Of a stretch of DNA of 64,000 nucleotides, positions 43,634 to 56,548 are shown piece after piece. Within the stretch, counting starts at the first letter, position 1, and each line of letters opens with the position of its first letter. The notes beneath the pieces are model-generated. The model was given only the letters and a program-made list of their open reading frames with translations. It did not search any database and was not told the DNA's origin. The position numbers were made by a program, and so were the translations under genes. The stretch is from an uncultured Ruminiclostridium sp. (GTDB taxonomy: Bacteria > Bacillota > Clostridia > Oscillospirales > Ruminococcaceae), in assembly GCA_964456025.1 (NCBI GenBank), contig CAYVZH010000010.1, positions 349-64,348 of the forward strand, read 5' to 3'.

Positions 43634-44260
43634 TCAGCTCACCACAAACATCGTTTCTACCCTGCCTGCCGGCATACACAGCCGCGTCGGGAAAGAGCAG
43701 GCATATACGCCCGTCGCGAGAACGCAGTTATCCGTAAAGTTCTGGCTGTCCACCTCCGACCAGCTGCCGTCTGTCCAGTACGCCGCCGATACGCGGTAAT
43801 GATCGTCGATCACCGCATAAAACGTCCCGTCATACGACGTTTCGGTAAGACGCTCATTCACCAAACGCATAAAGCTTTCCACAAAGCTCCGCTGATTCGC
43901 GTCGGATATTGCCGCGAGCGTCGTCTGCGAGCCGCCCGATACGGCGATCCCGCAATCTGCGTTTGTAACCCGACCCTTTTCGCCCGCCACGACCTCGGCA
44001 TATAAGATGATGCTGTCACCCGCCGAGGCAACAATATGGTCGCCCGAAAGCGTTCCTTCACCCGTGAGATGTTTCCGGCTCGCGAAGGTCTGTGCCGTGT
44101 AATAAAAATCCTTCGCATAGCCTTTTCCCGCCGCGGGGCGATCGCTCGTCAGCAGCGTCGGCACAGCCAACGCAATCAGAACGCCAATGATCGCAATCAC
44201 AATGATCAGTTCCACTAAAGTAAAGCCTTTTTTCGCTTTCAGCTGTTGAATTTTTTTCAT
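43634..44260 (-). CDS. Type IV pilin-like protein (minor)
   Basis: Class III signal KKG/FTLVELIIVIAIIGVL. Confidence 0.9.
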   Translation of the reverse strand: MKKIQQLKAKKGFTLVELIIVIAIIGVLIALAVPTLLTSDRPAAGKGYAKDFYYTAQTFASRKHLTGEGTLSGDHIVASAGDSIILYAEVVAGEKGRVTNADCGIAVSGGSQTTLAAISDANQRSFVESFMRLVNERLTETSYDGTFYAVIDDHYRVSAAYWTDGSWSEVDSQNFTDNCVLATGVYACSFPTRLCMPAGRVETMFVVS

Positions 44261-44297
44261 AGCGCACCTCTTGATCGTTTATTTTACGGCGTCGGAA

Positions 44298-44453
44298 TCA
44301 GAATTCCTCCGTCTTTTCCTTCGGCTGATCCGGCTTGGACTTATATCGCTCCTCACCTGATTTCACATACAGCATAAAATCGTTTATCTTTTCATCGCTC
44401 CAGCCTGCCACGCACAAACCGAGAATCAGTCTCGCGGTTTGTTGCATATTCAT
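44298..44453 (-). CDS. Small hypothetical protein (51 aa), below the ORF-track cutoff
   Basis: AAGGAG RBS; MNMQQTARLILGLCVAGWSDEKINDFMLYVKSGEERYKSKPDQPKEKTEEF fills the toxin-pilin gap. Confidence 0.7.
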   Translation of the reverse strand: MNMQQTARLILGLCVAGWSDEKINDFMLYVKSGEERYKSKPDQPKEKTEEF

Positions 44454-44477
44454 TATGAAGCTTCTCCTTTTTACTCT

Positions 44478-44753
44478 TTAAAACAAATCCGAATGTGTTC
44501 CCGTATCAATCAACGTCAAAGTTAATATGTCGTTTTCTATAAGATATACTAAAAGCCAATCCGGACGAATATGACATTCTCTAAAACCGTCCCATTTTCC
44601 TTTTAACGCGTGATCCCGGTATTTCGGTTCAAGCGGAATCCCATTCAATAGCTTTTCGATCACGGGATCGATTGAGGAAACATCAATGCCCCGCTTTTTT
44701 GCAAGCACGATACTTTTCGTATATTTTTTGGAAACGACCAACTTATATTTCAT
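44478..44753 (-). CDS. Type II TA toxin, YafQ/RelE family mRNA interferase
   Basis: KYRDHALKGKWDGFRECHIRPDWLLVY..DTGTHSDLF. Confidence 0.93.
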   Translation of the reverse strand: MKYKLVVSKKYTKSIVLAKKRGIDVSSIDPVIEKLLNGIPLEPKYRDHALKGKWDGFRECHIRPDWLLVYLIENDILTLTLIDTGTHSDLF

Positions 44754-45016
44754 ATTCCCAAATCCTTGCGGGCTTCTTCATAGCTGTCATACTTTTTTGT
44801 GTTCGGATCGCGGCTTAGTTGTTTCGCCTCTTTCATTGCTTCGATCATCTCTTCATTATATAAACAGTTTCTGATCGGAAACGGAATGCCGTCGTACAAA
44901 AGAACTTGTTTTAAGAATATATTCACCGCAGTAGATATATCCATTCCCAAAGCCTCTAAAAGCTCGGTCGCTTCTTCCTTCGTGGTTTTGTCTACGTTGA
45001 TTTGAATTGTTTCCAT
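44750..45016 (-). CDS. Type II TA antitoxin, RelB/DinJ family
   Basis: IQINVDKTTKEEA..LGMDISTAVNIFLKQ..GIPFPI; overlaps the toxin start by 4 nt. Confidence 0.92.
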   Translation of the reverse strand: METIQINVDKTTKEEATELLEALGMDISTAVNIFLKQVLLYDGIPFPIRNCLYNEEMIEAMKEAKQLSRDPNTKKYDSYEEARKDLGI

Positions 45017-45095
45017 GTCTATATAAACACCCCCTTATCTCCCGAACCCTTCGGAATAAGGAAAACCCGTTTCCTCATTCCGAAACGCTCCTTCA

Positions 45096-45157
45096 AGCAT
45101 TTCATAAATAACCGCCTATTTCCCCCGCAGTCGCCCGCGGGGGAAATTCGGTTATTT
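45096..45157 (-). terminator. Long hairpin terminator after the major pilin
   Basis: AAATAACCG..TTTCCCCCGC/GCGGGGGAAA..CGGTTATTT nested stems. Confidence 0.65.
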
Positions 45158-45188
45158 GGGTTTTAAGCGTTTTTCTAAGCCTTACGGA

Positions 45189-45866
45189 TTAGATGATGGT
45201 GAGCTTCGGAGAAGTACCAACGATGTCGCCCGCAGCGGTAACACCCGCCGTATTGCCGTCCCAGCCAGCAACGTGAACCTTGTTGTTCAGAACCGCAGGA
45301 GTGGTGGGAGTAGCAGCAGTCATGTCGAAGTGGTTGGTGATTACTAAGGGAGTTGCCGTGTCAGCAGTGTACGCACAAGCGATAACGTGACCGCCGGAAA
45401 CCGCCGCAGCAACCTGACCCGCCTGGATATCCGGGAATAAGCCCGCCAGCTGGATCGCCATCAAATCGGTAACATTAGTGGCCGCGCTCTTCAGCGTGGT
45501 GGTCGTACCGGTACCGGAAGCCGCCCAAGAAAGAGTACCTACGTTGAACGCGGTCGTATCGTTAGTAACGGCAGCGGTCCAAGTGGTAGTACCACCGGTG
45601 GTAGAAATCGTGAACGTGAAATCAGAGTACGCAACACCCTTCTTCATGCCATAACCGTTGGTATCGCAATCGGTAAGGAACGCGTCGATCTCCTTCGCGA
45701 ACGAAGCAGCGGTGGAGTCCGCGCTGGTAACACGGGAGTTCGTTACGTAACCTAACATCGTAGGTACGAGGATTGCGGCAAGTACACCGATGATCGCAAT
45801 AACTACGATTAACTCAACGAGTGTAAAGCCTTTTTTTGCCTTGAGCTTCTGGAAAAACTTAATCAT
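45189..45866 (-). CDS. Type IV pilin (probable major pilin)
   Basis: KKG/FTLVELIVVIAIIGVLAAILVP; strong AAGGAGG RBS; Thr/Ala-rich. Confidence 0.92.
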   Translation of the reverse strand: MIKFFQKLKAKKGFTLVELIVVIAIIGVLAAILVPTMLGYVTNSRVTSADSTAASFAKEIDAFLTDCDTNGYGMKKGVAYSDFTFTISTTGGTTTWTAAVTNDTTAFNVGTLSWAASGTGTTTTLKSAATNVTDLMAIQLAGLFPDIQAGQVAAAVSGGHVIACAYTADTATPLVITNHFDMTAATPTTPAVLNNKVHVAGWDGNTAGVTAAGDIVGTSPKLTII

Positions 45867-46390: not shown

Positions 46391-47380
46391 ATGAAGAAAA
46401 AAATACTTTCTGTCTTATTGATATGCAGTCTGTTTTTGTCCGCCTGCGACGCGGAGCCGTCGGAAACCTCCGCGGACGGAACGGGTGCGCCCGATTCCGC
46501 CGTTTCCGACCAGGCGTCGGTCGAGATCGGGGGCATGTCTTACCCGATCGACAGCACGGAACTGCGGCTGACCTCCGGCGCGCTTCAAGCGGAGGAGCTT
46601 TCAAAGCTCTCCGAATTTCCGAACCTTGCCATTCTCGACCTGAGCGATAACGGCTTTACCGATCTTTCCGCACTCAGCGGACTTCAAAGCCTTTACATTC
46701 TTTATATAAACGGGAATCCGATTTCCGACTTTTCGTTTCTGGAGGAGCTTCCGTACCTGGAAGAGCTGCACGCGGACAACTGCGGACTGAGCGATCTTTC
46801 CGCGCTCCCGATACTTTTGAATCTGGAGGAGTTAAGCGTACGCGGGAACGAAATCGCCGATCTTTCGCCGCTGACCGAATTTCTGAGCCTGATCCGCCTT
46901 GTCGTCAATAATAACCCGATCTCCGATTTCTCACCCTTGTCGGAAATGACCGACCTCGAGAGCCTGGAGGCGGATAACTGCGGGATCGACGATCTTTCCT
47001 TTGCGTCGGGGCTTGTGAACCTCTACACCCTGAGCGCCTGCGAAAACCAAATCAGCGACCTTTCGCCGATCGCGGGACTTACGGCAATGGAAAACCTGTA
47101 CCTCGACGGAAACGAGATCAGCGATCTTTCCCCGATCGCGGGAATGGAACTTCTCGAATGGCTCTATCTCGCGGAAAACAACGTTTCGGATCTCTCTCCG
47201 ATTAGGGGGCTTACCGCACTCGATCTGATCGACCTCGAGGCGAACCGGGTGTCCGACATTTCGATTTTTTACGAAATGGAGTGGATGAGCACGATCTACC
47301 TTTTTGAAAATCCCGTTTCCGAAGAGGATCTTGATGCGCTCGACAAGACGCTGAAGGAAACGACTATCGGATACGATTAA
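46391..47380 (+). CDS. Leucine-rich repeat lipoprotein (internalin-type LRR)
   Basis: Lipobox LSAC; about ten 22-aa repeats LxxLxLxxNxIxDLSxL. Confidence 0.92.
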   Translation: MKKKILSVLLICSLFLSACDAEPSETSADGTGAPDSAVSDQASVEIGGMSYPIDSTELRLTSGALQAEELSKLSEFPNLAILDLSDNGFTDLSALSGLQSLYILYINGNPISDFSFLEELPYLEELHADNCGLSDLSALPILLNLEELSVRGNEIADLSPLTEFLSLIRLVVNNNPISDFSPLSEMTDLESLEADNCGIDDLSFASGLVNLYTLSACENQISDLSPIAGLTAMENLYLDGNEISDLSPIAGMELLEWLYLAENNVSDLSPIRGLTALDLIDLEANRVSDISIFYEMEWMSTIYLFENPVSEEDLDALDKTLKETTIGYD

Positions 47381-47738
47381 AAAATAATGCCGAACCCGAA
47401 AAGACCGGGTTCGGCAAAGCGGCGCAAGGCACCGCGAAAAGGGCAAAGGGGAGCCCCCGGCGCGGCGATTCAAGAACGGTTCGTCCGACCCCCTGCCCGT
47501 GAGCGCTTCGACGTTTGCGGCTTTCCGACCGTTACCGCGCTTTCCCCCGCCCTTTATCAGTGTATGCCGACCGAAAAAATAAGTGCGGCGGCGTGCCGCC
47601 GTTCGCAATTCCGAAGAAGTCCTCCGAATGGGGGAAGTAACTGCGCGTGCGGCGGGATTTCCTGTTTCGCACACTTGTCGGAGCGTGCCGCCGTTCGCCT
47701 ATTTAGAACAATTTGAATGCTGAAAGCGAGGTTTTTTG

Positions 47739-48161
47739 ATGAAAATTTGTAAATCCTGCGGTGCGTCCAATCGGGACGACAGCCGATTCTGCTGCAACTG
47801 CGGCTTTGCCGAGCTTGAACAGGCTCCCGATCCCGTTCCCGCTCCCACACCCGCTCCGCCGCCCGTGGTCGTACATACCCCGCCGATTTTCCCGCCCCCG
47901 AAGCCCGAATTTACGCGCTATGACCTCTCGACGATTTTCGGCTTTGTCGCGGCGATCGTCGGGCTGTTCCAGATTTCGCTGATCCTAGAGCCGCTCGCGC
48001 TCCTTACCGCGATCTTCGGCTTTGCGCGCGGAAAGCGCTACCGCGGACTTGCGGTAGCCGGGATCGTGATCGCCGGGATCGGGCTTCTGCTCCGCCTGTT
48101 CTGGACGCTGTACCACAACGGCGTAGTTCCGCAGTGGGTCATTACCGGGACGTTTAATTGA
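47739..48161 (+). CDS. Zinc-ribbon membrane protein
   Basis: CKSCG..FCCNCG, Pro-rich linker, 2-3 TM helices. Confidence 0.8.
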   Translation: MKICKSCGASNRDDSRFCCNCGFAELEQAPDPVPAPTPAPPPVVVHTPPIFPPPKPEFTRYDLSTIFGFVAAIVGLFQISLILEPLALLTAIFGFARGKRYRGLAVAGIVIAGIGLLLRLFWTLYHNGVVPQWVITGTFN

Positions 48162-48346: not shown

Positions 48347-48440
48347 AAAGCAATATTGCTTTTCGCTTCCTTTTGGCTACAAAAGGAAGCAGGGGGTATG
48401 GGGGACAGGGTCCCCCAAAAACATATACTTCTCTCTTATA
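48347..48440 (+). repeat. Family B arm
   Basis: AAAGCAATATTGCTTTTCGCTTCCTTTTG..CAAAAGGAAGCAGGGGGTATGGGGGACAGGGTCCCCCA. Confidence 0.7.
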
Positions 48441-48445
48441 ATCTC

Positions 48446-51400
48446 TCACTCAACCGCACGAAACTCCGTTTTTTCGCCCGTGGCGAGATCGACGGTCATG
48501 ATCATGTGATCGGTCACGGCGTAAAGGATCCCGTCCCGGATCGCGGCAACCCGATCCTTCGACTGAATGTCATAAAAAGACAGCTCCGCCGCTTTTTCGA
48601 GAAATGAGCCGTTATCGGCAAAGCAGACAAAGCGCTCAATCTCGGAAATCCCGTCAAAGGCGACATACGAGACCGCCGCGTATTTTCCGTCCTCGCTTAC
48701 GGCGATCCGCTCGCTGTTTTCTTCGGCGTCGCCCGAGAGATAGCGCGCGTATTCGGGCGCGGTTTTTTCATCAACCCCGATCCGCGCCGAACGCAGAACC
48801 GAAAGCCCGTTCTCCTTGTCATAGCCGTAAACCGAGAGCAGGAGCGCGGTTCGTTTCCCGTCCGCGTCCGACTCGGCGGAAAGCCCGATCAGGTTTTCGC
48901 CGAAGCCCGAAAGCTTTTCATAATAAACCGCGTTCGGGTTCGCTTCCGCCGCCATAGGCTCCTCCCCCGTAAAATCAACACAGTAGAGCTTTGTCTCACT
49001 CTCCGTTTCGGTCACAATATACGCGATTCCGTCGAGATAGCTCACCCCGCTCAGCCGTTCGCCCGCCGCGAAGCCTTCAAGCCGCACGTAGCCCTCCTCG
49101 GTCTTTTTTTGTGCAATAAGCGTGCCCTCCGCGCTGTTGTACGAAACAATACAGTTCTCCTCCGCGCTCAGGCAGTCCGCGCCGTAGCATTCTCCCCGAA
49201 CCGTTTCCTGCGAGAGAAGCTCGGTACCCGTCCCGATCCGCCGGAGCCGGATCAAATGCGTCGTGTTCCAGTCGGGGAGAAGGAGCGTGATCCGATCCCC
49301 GTCAAACACCGCGTACGTATCATAGCCGCCGAGAACGGCACTTACGCGGGGTTCCCCGCCGCTCACCGTTCCGATCACGGAAAATCCGCCGCATACCGCG
49401 CCGTCGGCGAGCAGGATCTCCTCATACCCGAGCGCTTGCTCCGTTTCCCCGATCCCATAGCGCGGGAAAACCGTATGTCCGCCCGCGGGAGTGACCGACG
49501 TAACGAGGGTAAAAATCCCGTCGCCGATCCAAAGCGCGGAATACCGCCCGTCCTGCCGATATGTTTCGATCGGGGAAAGCGCCTTATCGTACACCTCGAC
49601 CCGTACCGAAGCGCCCTCCTCGTCATAAACGAGGTAGACCCGATCTTCCCGCGCGGTAAAGCCGATGAGACCGCCGTCCGCGCTCAGGGGAAGCTCCGCC
49701 GAAACGCGCGGAGCCTCGGGCGAGAGGGAAACGGCGCGAAGCGCACCCTGCCGCAAAAAATAAAGCGAATCGCCCGCCGCCCGAAAGTCGTCGGTCAGCG
49801 GCTCAGAATACGGCTGTGCGCCCGTCCGATAGGGCAGGAGGATGTTTTTCTGCACGCGGGATTTCATTTCCGACGCCGCGGCGAGCACGTCCGCGTCCGA
49901 CTCGATCGTAACCGTCGGAGATGACGGCACGGGCGCGTCAATTATCTCCTTCTCGGTCGGGAGCACCGTCCCCGTCATCAGGAAGCGGATCCCGAAGCTC
50001 CCCGCGATCAGAAGCACCGCGCATACCGCGCAAAACGCGAGTTTTCCATTATTGACGCCGCGATAATAGACGTCGTCGTCAATGAAAAACTCCTTACCCT
50101 TGTATTTTTCGCGGCGAGGCTTTTCGGCTTCCTCGTCGTCGCCGAGGTCGGGAACCGTCGGGCGGAACACCTCCGGAGCAGGCGCGTCCGGCTTTTTCCG
50201 CGGCGCGGGCTTTTCCTCCTCGCCCGAAAGCTGCCCAAGTACCGCCGTATTGACGGGCGGCGTAAAGGCTCCCGTATTTTCGGGACGGACGACTTTTTTC
50301 TTTTTTGCGGGCTTTTCCTCTTCCTCGCCCGAAAGCCGCCCGATCACCGCCGTATTGACGGGCGGCGTAAAGGCTCCCGTATTTTCGGGACGGGCGCCTT
50401 TTTTATTTTTCGCGGGCTTTTCCTCTTCCTCGCCCGAAAGCCGCCCGATCACCGCCGTATTGACGGGCGGGGTAAAAGGCCCCGTGTTTTCGGGACGGGT
50501 CTCTTTTTTATTTTGTGCAGGCGCGGACTTTTCCGCGTTTTTCTTTGCGGGGAGGGGCTTTTCCGCCGCGGAGGGCTTTTTCCGCTCCACGGTAAAAAGA
50601 CCCGCCTGTTCCGTCTGCCGGCGCTGTTCTTCCTTTTTCTCTTTCCATTCGAGAAGCTCGTTTCTCCGCTTTACGGCGGAAAGAAGCTTATAATAATCCT
50701 CCGAGGTGAGCGGCGAGCTTTCGAGAAGCTCGATCAGCCGTCCCTTCGTCAGATTCGGATTTTCCTGAATCTCGCGGTAAACGTCGTTGCTGATCCGGGT
50801 GTTTCCGATCAGCTGTAAAAATTCCTTCCCCTTGATCCGCTGCGCGCTTATCACGCCGATAAACGTCCTCGCGTCAAGCGGCTTCCCGCCGGAAGCGGAT
50901 TCCGTTTCCGCTGCGGGCTTCGTCTCGTCCGATTTCCCGTCGGGCGCTTCCTTTTCGAGAAGATGTCTGTCTTCGGGGAGCGGCTTTTCTTCGGGGGGCA
51001 GATCCCTTTCGGGCATGGGCGGCTCCGTACGATTCGGTCGGACCTCCGCAGGGACGGGAACGGCAAGCTTTTTCTGTTTTTCCTCCGGGAAACGGATCCC
51101 CTCGATCTCCCGAAGAACCGCCGCCTTCTCCTCGCCGAGCTTTTTCTCCGAATCAATCAGCTTCCGCTCGACCGTTTCGTCCTTCAAGCCCGTAATGACC
51201 GAAATTTCGTGAATATTATAATGGAAGGCATACGACATGGCGCAGACGATCCGATCGAGGCTCGGGAGCTCTGAAAACCGACCTTCTCCGCGCGGCTCGA
51301 CCCCCTCCGCGCGGTATTCCTTGATCCGCGCGACAAGGTGCTTGGTAAGCTCGCGGGAAAGCCACGCCTGTAAATGCGCGCCGTCCCGCATCTGCGCGAT

Positions 51401-51571
51401 CCGGGCATACCCGTCCCGAAAAGCGTTTTTTACCGCTTCCCGCGCGTCCTCGGAACGTCCGAGCGACAGAACGGCAGCCGCGTAAAGCCTGTCCGCCGAA
51501 TCGGCGCAAAGCAGATCATAAGCGGAGCGGTCGCCGTTTTTCGCACACTCCAGTTTTTCCGCAGCCGTCAT
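48446..51571 (-). CDS. Fusion: degenerate ECF sigma-like N-terminus, repeat linker, TM helix, extracellular beta-propeller
   Basis: Sigma2-like DRLYAAA..EDAREAV..AWL and sigma4-like LPSLDRIV..HEISVITG..TVERKL; TM LAFCAVCAVLLIAGSFGI; GERLSGVSYLDGIAYIVT resembles Beta_propel family repeats. Confidence 0.7.
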   Translation of the reverse strand: MTAAEKLECAKNGDRSAYDLLCADSADRLYAAAVLSLGRSEDAREAVKNAFRDGYARIAQMRDGAHLQAWLSRELTKHLVARIKEYRAEGVEPRGEGRFSELPSLDRIVCAMSYAFHYNIHEISVITGLKDETVERKLIDSEKKLGEEKAAVLREIEGIRFPEEKQKKLAVPVPAEVRPNRTEPPMPERDLPPEEKPLPEDRHLLEKEAPDGKSDETKPAAETESASGGKPLDARTFIGVISAQRIKGKEFLQLIGNTRISNDVYREIQENPNLTKGRLIELLESSPLTSEDYYKLLSAVKRRNELLEWKEKKEEQRRQTEQAGLFTVERKKPSAAEKPLPAKKNAEKSAPAQNKKETRPENTGPFTPPVNTAVIGRLSGEEEEKPAKNKKGARPENTGAFTPPVNTAVIGRLSGEEEEKPAKKKKVVRPENTGAFTPPVNTAVLGQLSGEEEKPAPRKKPDAPAPEVFRPTVPDLGDDEEAEKPRREKYKGKEFFIDDDVYYRGVNNGKLAFCAVCAVLLIAGSFGIRFLMTGTVLPTEKEIIDAPVPSSPTVTIESDADVLAAASEMKSRVQKNILLPYRTGAQPYSEPLTDDFRAAGDSLYFLRQGALRAVSLSPEAPRVSAELPLSADGGLIGFTAREDRVYLVYDEEGASVRVEVYDKALSPIETYRQDGRYSALWIGDGIFTLVTSVTPAGGHTVFPRYGIGETEQALGYEEILLADGAVCGGFSVIGTVSGGEPRVSAVLGGYDTYAVFDGDRITLLLPDWNTTHLIRLRRIGTGTELLSQETVRGECYGADCLSAEENCIVSYNSAEGTLIAQKKTEEGYVRLEGFAAGERLSGVSYLDGIAYIVTETESETKLYCVDFTGEEPMAAEANPNAVYYEKLSGFGENLIGLSAESDADGKRTALLLSVYGYDKENGLSVLRSARIGVDEKTAPEYARYLSGDAEENSERIAVSEDGKYAAVSYVAFDGISEIERFVCFADNGSFLEKAAELSFYDIQSKDRVAAIRDGILYAVTDHMIMTVDLATGEKTEFRAVE
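50212..50498 (-). repeat. Three 105-bp coding tandem repeats
   Basis: CGGGACGG anchors at 50281, 50386 and 50491; encodes RPENTG(P/A)FTPPVNTAV(I/L)G(R/Q)LSGEEE. Confidence 0.9.
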
Positions 51572-51752
51572 GCCGTCACTTCCTTTCTTGAATATTACTA
51601 ACATATTATTATAGCATAAATTCGCGAAAAAGGGAAGGTTTTTTTGAATTTTTGTTTCTTTTCGAAAAGGAAAACAGATTTTGGGGAAGGTTATCTTTTG
51701 AGAATAGATTTGTTCCGTTCTCCCAACCGCAAAAGAACCGTCGGAAAAACGC

Positions 51753-51781: not shown

Positions 51782-51846
51782 GACTGCGAAAAGAGCTTTA
51801 ATGATAGCATTTGCCATTTACAAACCCGGATCGGAGGCCGCCTTTT

Positions 51847-52731
51847 ATGAAAAAATATCGAATCGCTTCTTTATGCACCTGCCTTTGCCTGCTTCTTTGC
51901 TCCTGTAACGGGGATTCCGGAACGGCTTCTCAACCGTCGGAAACGACTGCCCCAAGCGAAAGCAGTATCACAAGCCTTACAACGGCATCGGAAACGACCG
52001 TCCCGAGCGAAAGCAGTATCACAAGCCTTACCGCCACGGCCGCTCCGACGGACACAAAACCCGTTTCCACAACAGAGGTCCCGTTCTTCTTGGTGGATCA
52101 GACCGTTAAGGAATGCGACCCCATCGACAAAAGCCTGAACTGTGAGGAGATCCTGCTGGATCGGGCGGAAAGCCTGCAAATTCTGATGTGCGATTATTTG
52201 AGCTACGACCGGGAAAGCGTTGTCTATGAGATCGGCGAATGGGACGGGATCGGCTATCCGGTTCTTTCCGATTGGCTCCAAACCTACGACGATTTCAAAA
52301 GCCTGTTTTCCGACAAGATTTACGGGGACTATCTCGACCTGCTCTGTACCTGGAATTGGCGGCTGTCCGAGATCGACGGCAGGCTGTATCGCATCGAACC
52401 GGTAGGCGTTGGCGCCTATATCGGCACCTTTGAAACATGGTATCTGGGGTGTGAGGTCACCGACGAAAAAATCATCGGGCATTTCGCCCGGCTCGGCGGA
52501 GTGGAGGATATTGGCTTGGACGACCCCGAATACCTGAACGACGAAAGCAATTACAGCTTTTACGACATCACTGTTCAGAATATTGACGGGCAGTATGTTC
52601 TGACCGACTGTAAAGGAGACGATCCGAGAGATTATTACACTCTGCACGGCTGGTGTTACAATGCGGGCAGGGCGGACAGAAGCCTGATCACAAATGAAAA
52701 AGTGAAGCCGCGGGAAGCGGTTTACGATTAA
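51847..52731 (+). CDS. Hypothetical lipoprotein with duplicated Ser/Thr linker
   Basis: Lipobox LCSC; SETT(A/V)PSESSITSLT twice (51-bp repeat at 51937 and 51988). Confidence 0.75.
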   Translation: MKKYRIASLCTCLCLLLCSCNGDSGTASQPSETTAPSESSITSLTTASETTVPSESSITSLTATAAPTDTKPVSTTEVPFFLVDQTVKECDPIDKSLNCEEILLDRAESLQILMCDYLSYDRESVVYEIGEWDGIGYPVLSDWLQTYDDFKSLFSDKIYGDYLDLLCTWNWRLSEIDGRLYRIEPVGVGAYIGTFETWYLGCEVTDEKIIGHFARLGGVEDIGLDDPEYLNDESNYSFYDITVQNIDGQYVLTDCKGDDPRDYYTLHGWCYNAGRADRSLITNEKVKPREAVYD

Positions 52732-52740
52732 AACAACCGA

Positions 52741-52769
52741 AAAAAGGGAGCCTTTCTCAAGGCTCCCTT
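52741..52769. terminator. Bidirectional terminator
   Basis: AAAGGGAGCC/GGCTCCCTTT between convergent genes. Confidence 0.75.
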
Positions 52770-52780
52770 TATTGCATTTC

Positions 52781-54640
52781 TTATTCCGTCCAGGAGTTCG
52801 TATTCTTCCGAACAACAACGACCTTTTCGGGGGTGATCTCGTTCACCGCGAAATCGCTTCCCGCTTTCTCCGGGAAAACGACCGTCCGTTCCGCCCGGTT
52901 CACGAGCGAGTTGGAGTCGATCTCATACACGGTTCCGCCGCTTTGGAAGCAGGTTCTTCCGCCGTCGGTCAGGATCGCGGTATTTTCGTCGATCACAGCG
53001 CCCGAAACAAGCATACCGAGATTCACGTCATAGATAAAGCTTCCGTTTTCGGAAATCAGCCCGAAGCTTTCCAGATCTCTGCCGCGCCGCAGCTTTACCG
53101 TCTTGTCAAACGCCGCAAGCTCGACCAGCCTTCCGTTCGTGCAGTTGAACGAAAACAGCTTTGTGCCGCTCGTAAGCTGTTCCGTCTTTGCGAGGTAGAG
53201 GAGATCGCCCTTTACACCCGCAACCGAAACCGGCCCGTCGCTTTCCACAAGCGGATGGAACTGAAGTCCCGCGCCTTTGGATACCGTGACCTCATAAACA
53301 AAGGAAGTCGTATTCAAAACGGATTTAACATAATACTTATTCGCAAGCGGGGCGTAAACAACGCCGCCAAGTCCGGCTTCGCCGATATTCGTGCTTACGT
53401 CGTAGGTTTTCGCCTCGTTACGGTCAAGATCGATCACGGAAATAATGTTGCGCACGTCGCTGCTGTTGCAGCCCGTAACAATTACCGTGTGCTCATCGCT
53501 GTACGCGATCTTGGGAGTGCCCAGCTCGATCGCCGCGCAGCACTGCGATCCGCCGAATCCGCCGAACGAATAGAGATATGCCGCGCTTTTCGTCAGAACG
53601 ACCGCATTATCCCCGCTTAAATAGGTCTCGAGCGAATTCGGAACATTCAGCTCGTAAAATTCGGTCAGGAGCGACTGTCCCGGATCGGTCACCGCCGAGG
53701 TGATCTCGTTCGCGGGCGTTACCGCTGTTGTTTCCGAAGTTCTTTCGGTTTCATCAGGATCGTCGTATTCCGGCTCGGTAACCTCGGGATCCGTTTCCTC
53801 GGGATCCTCCGGCTCATTGTCCGCAATGATCGGTTCGGGATTCGCCGTTCCAGCGGGCGGAATGAGCGTGCTCGCGCTGTCCGAACCCGATTCGCCAATC
53901 TCGGGCGGTCTCGTATCGGAAGTCGTCCCCGAAGAGGTATCAAAGGAGAAGGGCGTGGTCGTAACCGGCGCGGAAGTCTGCGGAGCCGAAGTCTCCGTAT
54001 CGTTCAGGTCGTCGCCGAGCGGGTCGGGATCCTCGACCGGGAGCGGAATAAAGGTGTCGTCATTGATTTCCGCCGAGCCAAGCTCCGCGAGATATACCTG
54101 TGAAAGATCCTGAATATCCCGATAAAGCGCCGAGGGGGCCGAGATCTTCGCGCCGATGACCGTCCTGTCGCGGTCGTGCGCCGCTTCGTATTCGCGGAGC
54201 GTTTCCTCGCGGAGAACCGCCTGATCCTCCGTATAAAGCGCGTCTACGATGACTTCACCCGTATCCGCGACGGTCGAGAGCGCAACCGCTAGCTCTCCGT
54301 AGCTGATCGGTTCGGAAAAAGTCACGTAAATATCCGAAAGCGCCGCGGCCGCCTGTAAATTGTAATAATTACGCTCCGCTTCCCAAAGCCGCTGCGACGC
54401 GGAAAGCGCGGTATCTTCCGGTACAACAACCGGAGGCCCGGACTGGAAGGAAGAGGTATAACCGACTGCCGCGGCGGTTACCGCGATCGCGGCCGCCGTC
54501 CCCAAGGCGGGCTTCCAGTAATCCGACGCGAACCGCTGCCATGCGGGCTTTTTCGCCTGTTTTAAAGCGTTCTGGCGAATTTTCTCTTCGTCAAGCGCGT
54601 ATCTTGTCATCAGTTCCTTATAAAACTCGTTTTTATTCAA
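52781..54640 (-). CDS. Putative anti-sigma factor (short cytoplasmic N-terminus, TM, large ectodomain with propeller-like C-terminus)
   Basis: Directly downstream of the ECF sigma gene; TM ALGTAAAIAVTAAAVGY; Pro/Thr/Glu linker; TTG start. Confidence 0.6.
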   Translation of the reverse strand: MNKNEFYKELMTRYALDEEKIRQNALKQAKKPAWQRFASDYWKPALGTAAAIAVTAAAVGYTSSFQSGPPVVVPEDTALSASQRLWEAERNYYNLQAAAALSDIYVTFSEPISYGELAVALSTVADTGEVIVDALYTEDQAVLREETLREYEAAHDRDRTVIGAKISAPSALYRDIQDLSQVYLAELGSAEINDDTFIPLPVEDPDPLGDDLNDTETSAPQTSAPVTTTPFSFDTSSGTTSDTRPPEIGESGSDSASTLIPPAGTANPEPIIADNEPEDPEETDPEVTEPEYDDPDETERTSETTAVTPANEITSAVTDPGQSLLTEFYELNVPNSLETYLSGDNAVVLTKSAAYLYSFGGFGGSQCCAAIELGTPKIAYSDEHTVIVTGCNSSDVRNIISVIDLDRNEAKTYDVSTNIGEAGLGGVVYAPLANKYYVKSVLNTTSFVYEVTVSKGAGLQFHPLVESDGPVSVAGVKGDLLYLAKTEQLTSGTKLFSFNCTNGRLVELAAFDKTVKLRRGRDLESFGLISENGSFIYDVNLGMLVSGAVIDENTAILTDGGRTCFQSGGTVYEIDSNSLVNRAERTVVFPEKAGSDFAVNEITPEKVVVVRKNTNSWTE

Positions 54641-54693: not shown

Positions 54694-55236
54694 TTATATG
54701 TTAAATTTCTTCTTCTGGCGCTCGATCGTCCGATAGAGCTTGTTTTTCACACCCGACAGGCTCAGCCCAAGCTCCTTCGCCACCTCGTCGAGCTTCAGAT
54801 CGCAGACAAAGTGCAGGTAAAAGATCTTTCCCGTAACCGGATCGTCCTTCGCGATGTCGTCGAAGATCTGCTTCGCGAGCATGGAGTTACAGAGAACGTC
54901 CTCGAGGTTCGCCTGTTCGCGGGACATTTCCGCTTCGACGGCGACCATCTGCTCCTCGCTGAAGTCCGCGAAAGAAGAAGTGCCGCTATGCTTACGGACA
55001 AAGCCGAAGTAATTTTTGCACTCGAATTTCGCGATGTTGATCAGAAACGCCTCGGGACTTTCGATATCCTCGAACCCCTTTTTGGCGATCCGCTGATAAA
55101 AGCGGGTAAAGACATTCTGGAGAATATCCTCGGATTCCTGAACGCTGCCGCATTTGCTTACGACATAGCGGGAAACCGACGGAAACGTCTCCTTATAAAC
55201 TTGATTAAAGTAGGCGTCAAGCGTACCGCTGCCCAA
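54694..55236 (-). CDS. ECF RNA polymerase sigma factor
   Basis: SEDILQNVF..EAFLINIAKFEC and KLDEVAKELGLSLSGVKNKLYR; 180 aa. Confidence 0.88.
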   Translation of the reverse strand: MGSGTLDAYFNQVYKETFPSVSRYVVSKCGSVQESEDILQNVFTRFYQRIAKKGFEDIESPEAFLINIAKFECKNYFGFVRKHSGTSSFADFSEEQMVAVEAEMSREQANLEDVLCNSMLAKQIFDDIAKDDPVTGKIFYLHFVCDLKLDEVAKELGLSLSGVKNKLYRTIERQKKKFNI

Positions 55237-55540: not shown

Positions 55541-56548
55541 TCATTCGCCGATCGTGATCGTATCGGGGAAAATGCTCTTGCTTTCTTCCTTATTTAAGAA
55601 AGTCGTGCTTACATAGCCCTGAATGATCGCGCCGTCATTTACGGTAATGGTCGAGGCGCTGATGTCTCCGAATACGACCGCGTCGCTTTTCAGCTCGGCC
55701 TTCCCCGTGATCTCGAGATTCCCCTTGATCTTCCCGTTCACGTTCGCGTATGTGGAGGAGATGTCCCCGATCAGGAGCGTATCCCGCTCCATAAATACAT
55801 TCCCCTTCATCTGAATGTTTCCCTGAACCTGAGAGGTGCGAAGCGCCGCGTTGTTGCAGGCGATGTTCCCCACGACCTTTCCGTTCAGGTTGATGTCCTT
55901 CGTCGTCTCGACGTTCCCCTTGATGTTCCCGTCGATGTTCATGTTCGCGAACGAACGGATATTTCCGTCAACGACCGTGTTCCGCGAAATGACCGTGATC
56001 TCGTTTTCGTCCACGGGCGGATAATTCGCCGTCGAGAAAGAGACGGGCGTCGGCTCGGGGGGAACCGGCTCGGTATTCATGTCCTGCCCGGATCCCGCGT
56101 TCTGCGAGAAAGAGGGATTCTGTCCGAAGCCCGCGTTCTGTCCCGCGGAAGCTTGTCCCATGGGATTCTGCGCGAAGGAAGCCTGTCCCGCGGAGGGATC
56201 CTGTCCGAAGGAGGGCTGCCCTGCGTTTTGAGAAAACGCGGCATTTTGAGAAAACGCGGCATTTTGAGAAAATGCAGTGCCCTGAGAATCGTTGGGGCGG
56301 ATCCCGTCCAGCTCGTCCTGACGACGGTTATACGCCTCCGCCGCTTCCGCCGCGCGGCGCTCGATCTCCTCGAATTCGTCCCGTTCGGGCTCGGCGGGCG
56401 GCTCCTTGATCGCGGCAAATTCGCCCGTATCCGCGGCGTCGACCGCGCTTCTCATTCCGTCTACGGTTGCCTTATCGTTCCGCCGTTCCTCTTTATCGCC
56501 TCCGGTAAGCTCTCTGATCGCTTGTGAAAAATTTTCCTTAATGCCCAT
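55541..56548 (-). CDS. Bactofilin (polymer-forming cytoskeletal) protein with long low-complexity N-terminus
   Basis: TVISRNTVVDGNI..IDGNIKGNV..GDISASTITVNDGAIIQG, apparently two bactofilin-type modules. Confidence 0.85.
   Translation of the reverse strand: MGIKENFSQAIRELTGGDKEERRNDKATVDGMRSAVDAADTGEFAAIKEPPAEPERDEFEEIERRAAEAAEAYNRRQDELDGIRPNDSQGTAFSQNAAFSQNAAFSQNAGQPSFGQDPSAGQASFAQNPMGQASAGQNAGFGQNPSFSQNAGSGQDMNTEPVPPEPTPVSFSTANYPPVDENEITVISRNTVVDGNIRSFANMNIDGNIKGNVETTKDINLNGKVVGNIACNNAALRTSQVQGNIQMKGNVFMERDTLLIGDISSTYANVNGKIKGNLEITGKAELKSDAVVFGDISASTITVNDGAIIQGYVSTTFLNKEESKSIFPDTITIGE
56226..56279. repeat. 18-bp tandem repeat (SQNAAF x3)
   Basis: TTTTGAGAAAACGCGGCA twice plus one diverged copy. 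Confidence 0.85.

Follow-up and report, generated by a model that had tools for sequence, protein, structure and literature searches.

A diverged ECF sigma-like domain in one chain with a membrane-anchored beta-propeller in uncultured gut Clostridia: a candidate single-chain sigma/anti-sigma-type sensor

In a 64,000-nucleotide stretch of DNA from an uncultured Ruminiclostridium sp. (GenBank assembly GCA_964456025.1, contig CAYVZH010000010.1, positions 349 to 64,348; hereafter the window), the gene P0001 (48446..51571, minus strand) encodes a 1041-residue protein that combines a domain resembling an extracytoplasmic function (ECF) sigma factor with a helical domain, a transmembrane helix and a beta-propeller. 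The question raised by this locus is whether the sigma-like domain still serves transcription from a membrane-bound protein, or whether it is a sigma fold kept for another use. An earlier note on this DNA had offered two answers, a membrane-tethered sigma released by proteolysis and a sigma mimic that cross-talks with a neighbouring ECF pair. The reading favoured here, to which we give a rough probability of 0.45, is that P0001 may be a single-chain sensor of the sigma/anti-sigma type with a transcriptional output, as judged from sequence comparisons, structure models and analogy with known hybrids.

The N-terminal 146 residues of P0001 are a diverged ECF-type sigma2-sigma4 domain. The sigma2-like part spans residues 1-90 (51302..51571; coordinates within the gene refer to the minus strand throughout) and the sigma4-like part, in which the region 4.2 recognition helix is eroded (ETVERKLIDSEKKLG), spans residues 100-146 (51134..51274), giving the ECF arrangement of sigma2 and sigma4 with neither sigma1 nor sigma3. 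In single-sequence searches, residues 4-90 resemble ECF sigma region 2, with matches to NCBIfam SigM (residues 4-84, E-value 2e-7) and to the sigma2 domain of SigR in the PDB (1h3l, E-value 1e-5); NCBIfam ECF models match the sigma2-like domain at E-values of 1e-7 to 1e-9, under their cut-offs, the best with 36 bits against a cut-off of 188. Sigma70_r4_2 is matched weakly by the sigma4-like domain (residues 100-138, E-value 0.002-0.03, 14-18 bits where the cut-off is 25.7). When 22 family members are combined in a profile, SigW is matched at an E-value of 2.5e-8 with both sigma domains covered, and all 22 members match several ECF models (E-values of 1e-9 to 1e-12), while 16 match Sigma70_r4_2 and 13 match TIGR02937 (best E-value 1e-7).

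Structure prediction agrees with the profiles. In AlphaFold monomer models built from a 45-sequence alignment, residues 1-160 have a predicted local distance difference test score (pLDDT) of about 95, with values of 94-98 in the sigma2-like domain, and Foldseek superposes them on whole ECF sigma factors, including SigW (5wuq, TM-score 0.71) and CnrH (0.70). The best matches are sigma chains taken from anti-sigma complexes, namely SigW-RsiW (0.71), CnrH-CnrY (0.70) and RpoE-NepR (0.59), and the sigma-like domain of PhyR is also matched (2lfw, TM-score 0.60). The resemblance of the first 150 or so residues to ECF regions 2 and 4, as described in the earlier note, is thus borne out by profile and by structure. 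That note would have given up its proposal had neither kind of search found a sigma fold at the N-terminus; both find one.

The evidence that carries the favoured reading comes from relatives in which the same parts are encoded separately. Across the family, the best conserved element is a five-helix cytoplasmic domain (residues 232-323, 50603..50878), with 60-75% identity compared to 42-55% for the sigma-like part and 30-45% for the propeller. An exhaustive profile search with this domain finds it in 99 clusters, most of which have no sigma-like domain: about 25 are of the fused form, and about 70 are proteins of 700-950 residues that carry the domain at their N-terminus or close to it, together with one transmembrane helix and Beta_propel, and lack the sigma-like part. 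These sigma-less proteins are of two kinds. The first begins with a 30-residue motif, M[ED]..L...Y[IM]....[IV]P.E[VL].P..I, and has a separate small gene directly upstream; the second (P0133, P0140 and P0144) starts directly with the five-helix domain, lacks the motif, and has no sigma-like gene upstream at these three loci. The small genes upstream of P0127, P0167 and P0190, which represent three independent lineages, encode proteins of 152, 167 and 166 residues that hhalign aligns to the sigma-like profile with probabilities of 99.0, 98.3 and 99.2%, and free-standing sigma-like genes in general encode 150-167 residues. In a metagenome scan, a sigma-like gene lies upstream on the same strand in 59 of the 61 loci with enough upstream DNA, these 59 representing 28 distinct sigma-like sequences, mostly from the human gut; the spacing, measured from stop to stop between the open reading frames, is about 20 bp or an overlap. 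The 30-residue motif travels with the sigma-like gene and is present only in partners that have one.

A small sigma gene followed by a gene for a single-pass membrane protein with its N-terminus inside and a large ectodomain is the canonical layout of ECF sigma/anti-sigma pairs (PMC7826278, PMC8999054). Since relatives of P0001 encode its two parts as adjacent genes in this sigma-then-anti-sigma order, sequence comparison identifies the window gene as an in-frame fusion of a two-gene unit comprising a sigma-like protein and its membrane partner. The same relatives lend strong, if indirect, support to the one-component membrane-tethered sigma proposed at the outset, and two features that mark sigma/anti-sigma hybrids are present, namely a sigma, a cytoplasmic segment, a transmembrane helix and an extracytoplasmic domain in one chain, and adjacent split genes in relatives. 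The protein database contains 105 full-length homologues, unnamed, and recurrence of the whole architecture in about 100 full-length homologues is far beyond chance. A scan of one genome per species recovers 39 loci, every one of them in a metagenome-assembled genome of an uncultured gut or rumen bacterium labelled Ruminiclostridium, Ruminococcaceae, Oscillospiraceae or Clostridia, and purifying selection acts on the family across about 40 such species-level genomes. It is found only in uncultured gut and rumen Oscillospirales, with the split form common in human gut metagenomes, and all of its members are unannotated.

The fusion junction likely lies in the segment that follows sigma4. A helix (residues 148-158, pLDDT of about 95) directly after sigma4 is followed by an invariant proline, P162, and this helix and proline motif (residues 147-175, 51047..51133) is likely the counterpart of the N-terminal motif of the split partners, which would make it both a putative sigma-binding element and the point of fusion. 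The assignment of sigma binding to this motif follows from the occurrence of the 30-residue motif only with a sigma-like gene, from the confidently modelled helix and from the closeness of the model to sigma chains of anti-sigma complexes. The fused segment resembles the split motif by eye and by position, a similarity that is weak, and no more than suggestive, at the level of sequence.

The mechanism proposed for P0001 begins with a sigma-like domain that is kept compact and closed at the membrane, a state in which the post-sigma motif would contact it in cis as the equivalent of a short anti-sigma peptide, judging from model confidence values alone. The propeller would sense an extracellular signal, and the chain would then be cut by proteolysis within the membrane, close to it or in one of the long disordered linkers. 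Cleavage would free the cytoplasmic part, as in IutY and as proposed for the ECF52 protein SCO4117, and the freed sigma-like domain may then bind the RNA polymerase core and redirect it. Proteins of this general kind have precedents in sigma/anti-sigma hybrids activated by proteolysis, IutY among them, and in groups ECF48, ECF52 and ECF53, for which such activation is predicted (PMC8999054).

Comparison with these systems shows where P0001 follows them and where it departs. Like P0001, IutY of Pseudomonas putida (an ECF243 hybrid; PMC8999054) carries an N-terminal ECF sigma, a cytoplasmic segment, one transmembrane helix and an extracytoplasmic sensor in a single chain, has relatives encoded as separate sigma and anti-sigma genes, and works by the regulated proteolysis that is the logic proposed here. 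In IutY, however, the sigma is canonical, the anti-sigma domain is of the FecR type, and signalling involves a TonB-dependent receptor of a Gram-negative envelope, whereas P0001 has a sub-threshold sigma with an eroded region 4.2 helix, no FecR domain, an additional five-helix domain and a Beta_propel ectodomain in a host of the Gram-positive type (Clostridia), and its proteolysis is proposed by analogy. The ECF52 protein SCO4117 of Streptomyces coelicolor and members of ECF48 and ECF53 (PMC5826349, PMC8999054) likewise join a sigma, a cytoplasmic regulatory domain, a transmembrane helix, a low-complexity, proline-rich stretch and an extracytoplasmic binding domain, with activation by processing predicted. 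ECF52 proteins are actinobacterial and carry a ZAS zinc-finger anti-sigma domain and a carbohydrate-binding module, neither of which is found in P0001, and the low-complexity linkers of P0001 are cytoplasmic. The best profile and fold match of residues 1-160, SigW with RsiW of Bacillus subtilis, is a Firmicutes ECF sigma held in closed form by a single-pass anti-sigma that is removed by regulated intramembrane proteolysis. In that system, however, two proteins are involved, the anti-sigma has a zinc-binding class I domain, and SigW, with its basic region 4.2 helix, scores above the cut-offs of all sigma models.

Several findings weigh against this reading. None of the curated sigma cut-offs (Pfam Sigma70_r2 and Sigma70_r4_2, and TIGR02937 at 42.9 bits) is passed by the window protein, for which Sigma70_r2 and TIGR02937 returned no reported match, and Pfam and NCBIfam scans find no anti-sigma domain of the zf-HC2/ZAS, RskA, FecR or DUF4179 types. 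The residues of region 4.2 that contact DNA are assigned by structures of sigmaE with the -35 element. The region 4.2 helix has a net charge of 0 to +2 in the family (mean +0.9, n=45; 0 in the window protein) compared to +2 to +6 in 11 genuine ECF sigmas, and the arginine at helix position 9, universal in genuine ECF sigmas, is replaced by aspartate, serine, isoleucine or asparagine and is never arginine or lysine. The basic recognition helix for the -35 element, TV[KR]xR..R.R, is not retained in these 45 members, and the commonest split form, from the human gut (ETVGVCLTNAEVTLK), has no basic residue at the helix contact positions. Because the helix that reads the -35 element is no longer basic, promoter recognition of the conventional kind is doubtful. 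The eroded consensus remarked upon in the earlier note is confirmed by the missed cut-offs and the lost arginine alike. Further, a hidden Markov model (HMM) of the split N-terminal motif matches the fused segment weakly, with a best E-value of 0.048 and 28 of 77 best matches falling at residues 140-180, and a large sister group without the sigma-like part retains the five-helix domain as its best-conserved element, which suggests that the helical domain, rather than the sigma part, is the core cytoplasmic function. The promoter of P0001, described below, is not of the self-regulated ECF type. Finally, each step of the mechanism above is one that we infer, the contact in cis being read from the confidence values of the model.

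In an alternative reading, the ECF fold has been kept only as a protein-binding module that no longer initiates transcription, and the five-helix domain is the true cytoplasmic output. The sigma-like domain, whether free or fused, would bind the adjacent motif and gate that output, or would titrate a partner. We regard this as a possible if tentative explanation and a serious competitor, the odds between a sigma that still directs transcription and a pseudo-sigma being roughly even. The sigma4 helix that reads DNA is eroded in all 45 fused members and more so in the human-gut split form (ETVGVCLTNAEVTLK), the domain stays below threshold with all sigma models, the promoter is not that of a self-regulated ECF gene, and the five-helix domain persists as the best-conserved part in about 70 clusters with no sigma-like partner. 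The structural match to PhyR offers a precedent, since PhyR, of the alphaproteobacterial general stress response, has a degenerate ECF sigma2-sigma4 fold without promoter-recognition residues and binds a short anti-sigma peptide through its sigma-like domain. PhyR differs in being soluble, with a fused receiver domain and phosphorylation-driven partner switching with NepR and EcfG, whereas P0001 is membrane-tethered, is linked to no genuine paralogous sigma, and has no receiver domain in any scan or in the model. Against a purely protein-binding role, the recognition helix is still basic in one split lineage (L122, STVKKKLRR), which fits an ancestrally functional sigma; K137 of the recognition helix is invariant; and sigma2 is better preserved, with its WL.R..T motif and with D63 and H66 strictly conserved in a loop that corresponds to the -10 pocket loop. 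In addition, where a sigma is known to be fused to its anti-sigma, it is a real sigma, and any partner for a mimic is still only putative. The mimicry that the earlier note had raised is plausible in view of the basic residues lost from the region 4.2 helix, while the cross-talk attached to it finds no support, as set out below for the neighbouring ECF pair.

The promoter bears on both readings. The gene is uninterrupted from its ATG (51571-51569) to its stop codon (48446-48448), and this ATG is preferred over the first in-frame ATG at 51604 because the ribosome-binding site AAAGGAAG (51579..51586, 8 nucleotides 5' of the ATG) and the starts of the homologues, which share the methionine at 51571, agree on it. 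Upstream lies a promoter of its own (51608..51660) composed of an A-tract, a -35 region of CTTTT type and an extended -10 element, TGCTATAAT (51616-51608), placed after the A-tract and 37 bases 5' of the start. A strong bidirectional terminator (52743-52770) ends the genes upstream, and from this terminator together with the promoter we take P0001 to be a separate transcription unit. ECF sigmas commonly use self-regulated promoters of the GAAC...CGT type; the promoter of P0001 is, by its sequence, of the housekeeping-sigma type. The combination of A-tract, CTTTT at -35 and TGnTATAAT is common to most fused genes and to split operons, and the layout is kept although the family proteins are just 30-40% identical. 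Its conserved form upstream of family genes and split operons reads TTCAAAAAA, 2-3 nucleotides, CTTTT at -35 and then TGnTATAAT, and was seen in the window and in L001, L003, L005-L007, L011, L017, L020-L026, L029-L036, L039-L043, L048-L050 and L075. Other extended -10 promoters of the window have TTGACA or TTGCAA in place of CTTTT, and the A-tract or T-tract upstream of family genes may act as an operator or be no more than an UP element.

The helices of the five-helix domain are modelled at residues 234-323 with pLDDT values of 80-90, and neither Pfam nor PDB searches with this domain find a family match. Five short helices with lengths and loops reminiscent of XRE domains invite a further reading, in which P0001 would be a membrane-tethered DNA-binding regulator with a Cro/C1 (XRE) helix-turn-helix and the sigma-like part would be an accessory contact for RNA polymerase. 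Two of 31 members match HTH_19 at an E-value of about 0.1, and, being long and flexible, the linkers could bring the domain as far as the nucleoid. Other comparisons argue against this, as hhalign gives a probability of 0.3% both for SinR and for a genuine HTH_3 protein encoded in the window, Pfam and PDB profile searches return no match, the best 50 matches of the viral and PDB fold searches contain no repressor type and sigma factors only, and the domain is not basic. We consider this reading highly improbable, and the XRE/Cro-type identity of the domain was set aside as unsupported by hhalign, by the PDB and Pfam profile searches and by the fold searches.

The remaining proposal is that the sigma-like domain acts on its neighbours. 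A genuine ECF sigma of 180 residues (54694..55236, minus strand), above the cut-offs of Sigma70_r2, Sigma70_r4_2 and TIGR02937, is followed by a gene for a 619-residue protein (52781..54640, minus strand) that is anti-sigma-like in position and topology, with a short cytoplasmic N-terminus, one transmembrane helix and a large ectodomain, and that has no family match in Pfam and NCBIfam scans. The pair lies 1.2 kb upstream of P0001 on the same strand, just as the earlier note had reported, and the sigma-like domain could in principle mimic the ECF sigma and compete for the 619-residue partner as a membrane-anchored anti-anti-sigma. This pair adjoins the gene in the window and in L121, which has a 69%-identical orthologue and keeps the order bactofilin, sigma, 622-residue protein and target gene, an order seen in the subclade of the window only. 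In another subclade, the family gene of nine loci is instead followed directly by genes for an ECF sigma of another kind and for an unrelated protein of about 570 residues. The two independent juxtapositions, mildly above chance expectation, are suggestive and far from proving a functional link. On the other side, an ECF pair is missing from about 23 loci for which at least 3 kb of flank is available; adjacency to a pair is limited to two subclades, whose pairs are of non-orthologous kinds with large partners that show no detectable similarity to one another; the sigma-like domain has no specific similarity to the neighbouring sigma; and BLAST, hmmsearch and hhalign find no homology between the target propeller and the ectodomains of the neighbours, nor between the two neighbour kinds. 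The target is moreover its own transcription unit behind a terminator, with a divergent lipoprotein gene between it and the pair in the window, and the sigma-like part of the split relatives has a dedicated partner of its own. We therefore consider competition with this pair highly improbable, and the cross-talk part of the earlier proposal is not upheld, given the separate promoter, the intervening terminator, the synteny confined to the closest subclade and the loci without a pair.

In the nine loci of the other subclade (L004, L005, L007, L008, L010, L014, L016, L035 and L037), the ECF sigma is on the same strand, has 165-186 residues and lies 85-470 bp downstream, and the protein of about 570 residues has a single transmembrane helix, no family match and no similarity to the 619-residue protein. 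Here, the family gene, the downstream sigma and the protein of about 570 residues may form a three-gene unit.

The rest of the chain between the sigma-like domain and the membrane consists of two disordered linkers on either side of the five-helix domain. Linker 1, rich in proline, glutamate and lysine (residues 176-231, 50879..51046), has pLDDT values below 50, with disorder modelled over residues 165-228, and varies from 60 to 220 residues among homologues. Linker 2 (50117..50602), disordered in the model over residues 324-497, holds a tandem repeat of 3.0 copies of a 105-bp unit (50204-50514), or three copies of 35 residues (RPENTGxFTPPVNTAVIGRLSGEEEEKPAKxKK), with a TGxFTPP motif in every unit. 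Relatives of 69-91% identity have one to three copies and distant ones have none, and the repeat is, on this comparison of sequences, a recent expansion inside a disordered cytoplasmic linker.

At the membrane, a conserved basic and aromatic juxtamembrane motif, REKYKGKEFFIDDDVYYRGVNNGK (50045..50116), with invariant Y490, F496, D499, Y502, G505, N507, G509 and K510, precedes a single transmembrane helix assigned by hydropathy to residues 510-533 (49973..50044) and by the model to residues 504-533; basic residues on its N-terminal side place the N-terminus inside. Residues 534-1041 (48449..49972) form the extracytoplasmic region, modelled as an all-beta propeller over residues of about 556-1040 with pLDDT of about 90, for which Foldseek of the full model finds generic propellers only. 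The match of the window protein to Beta_propel (PF09826) is below the gathering threshold (11.5 bits against 22.4, E-value 0.13) and is collinear with profile positions 298-493 of 495. Sigma-less relatives of the same architecture, found through the shared helical domain, match PF09826 at E-values of 1e-21 to 1e-24 and are aligned to the window protein by both tblastn and BLAST, so that the ectodomain is predicted to be a propeller fold homologous to bona fide members of Beta_propel. The window protein differs from those members in its sub-threshold score, and the family has no characterised function to transfer. The layout given in the earlier note, of a helical domain, a repeat linker, one transmembrane helix and an extracellular propeller of about 500 residues, is recovered by hydropathy, repeat finding and AlphaFold; the HMM search it had suggested does find Sigma70_r4_2 (E-value 0.002-0.03) and Beta_propel (0.13), each below threshold, with Sigma70_r2 unreported.

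Proteobacteria (IutY) and Actinobacteria (ECF48, ECF52 and ECF53) are known to encode fused sigma/anti-sigma proteins (PMC8999054, PMC5826349). Among those that we found described in the literature, none is clostridial and none has this domain set. On the favoured reading, P0001 extends the sigma/anti-sigma hybrids to a new phylum, with domains new to them and a sigma in decay, and is not categorically new. Three forms occur naturally in the family, a sensor alone, a sensor with a separate sigma-like gene, and a fusion, and within this series the DNA-reading helix has decayed to different degrees, making it testable whether an ECF sigma fold is kept for a use other than promoter recognition. 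Should the sigma-like module prove a true pseudo-sigma, an outcome that we hold to be possible, an ECF pair would have been taken out of transcription to serve a membrane sensor as a protein-protein switch, with the five-helix domain as the real output of that sensor. Gut Clostridia would then display three evolutionary stages, a sensor by itself, a sensor with a free pseudo-sigma and the fused protein, and the module would join PhyR as a second kind of ECF sigma mimic that does not act in transcription, the first from Firmicutes. Independently of this choice, the analysis defines a new, very conserved cytoplasmic domain on Beta_propel sensors, a Pfam family of unassigned function, and is of relevance to the field of ECF signalling and to the unannotated proteins of gut Clostridia.

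Clustering of open reading frames from 44 loci in search of a universal gene neighbour gave subclade-specific synteny only (serS, an E1-E2 ATPase and type IV pilus ATPases), and this candidate was rejected. Between the 619-residue gene and P0001 in the window, a gene at 51811-52731 (plus strand) encodes a 306-residue lipoprotein-like protein with a signal peptide with cysteine, an internal repeat rich in serine and threonine, and no family match; it looks like a recent insertion because the orthologous gap in L121, of 292 bp, does not contain it. A bactofilin gene (55541-56548, minus strand), whose product has a long, low-complexity N-terminal region of FSQNA and GQ(N/A) repeats, lies immediately upstream of the ECF sigma. 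An Rfam scan of the 46-56 kb region finds no RNA family.

Downstream of P0001, a gene for a leucine-rich repeat (LRR) lipoprotein (329 residues, LRR_4 E-value 2e-36) and one for a zinc-ribbon protein with two transmembrane helices (46391-48161, plus strand) converge on its 3' end. Two short, G+C-rich hairpins, CTTCCTTTTG..CAAAAGGAAG and GGGGGAC.GTCCCCC (48369..48417, within the region 48352-48420), lie 3' of the stop codon and are likely, from their sequence, the terminator region common to P0001 and the convergent gene. In metagenome and metatranscriptome contigs, this region shows a depth spike of about 7-fold and many loose ends, and is therefore taken to be a multi-copy palindromic element in these communities. 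Fragmentary metatranscriptome contigs cover the gene in related strains, and a search of sequencing runs for a near-identical source found none, the share of words being at most 0.20.

Further from the gene, two type IV pilin-like genes with the N_methyl motif (43634-45866, minus strand) flank a YafQ-toxin/RelB-antitoxin pair (44478-45016), and genes for type IV pilus ATPase and prepilin peptidase adjoin the family gene in L001, L005, L013 and L120. A SleB-like gene (PG_binding_1 and Hydrolase_2) and ypeB occur near family genes in unrelated loci (L045, 8213-8875; L004, 21854-23170), and genes for MurL and a Mur ligase are found divergently upstream of sigma-less members in L047 and L123. The presence of spore-cortex and Mur genes near family genes may indicate a link to the cell wall.

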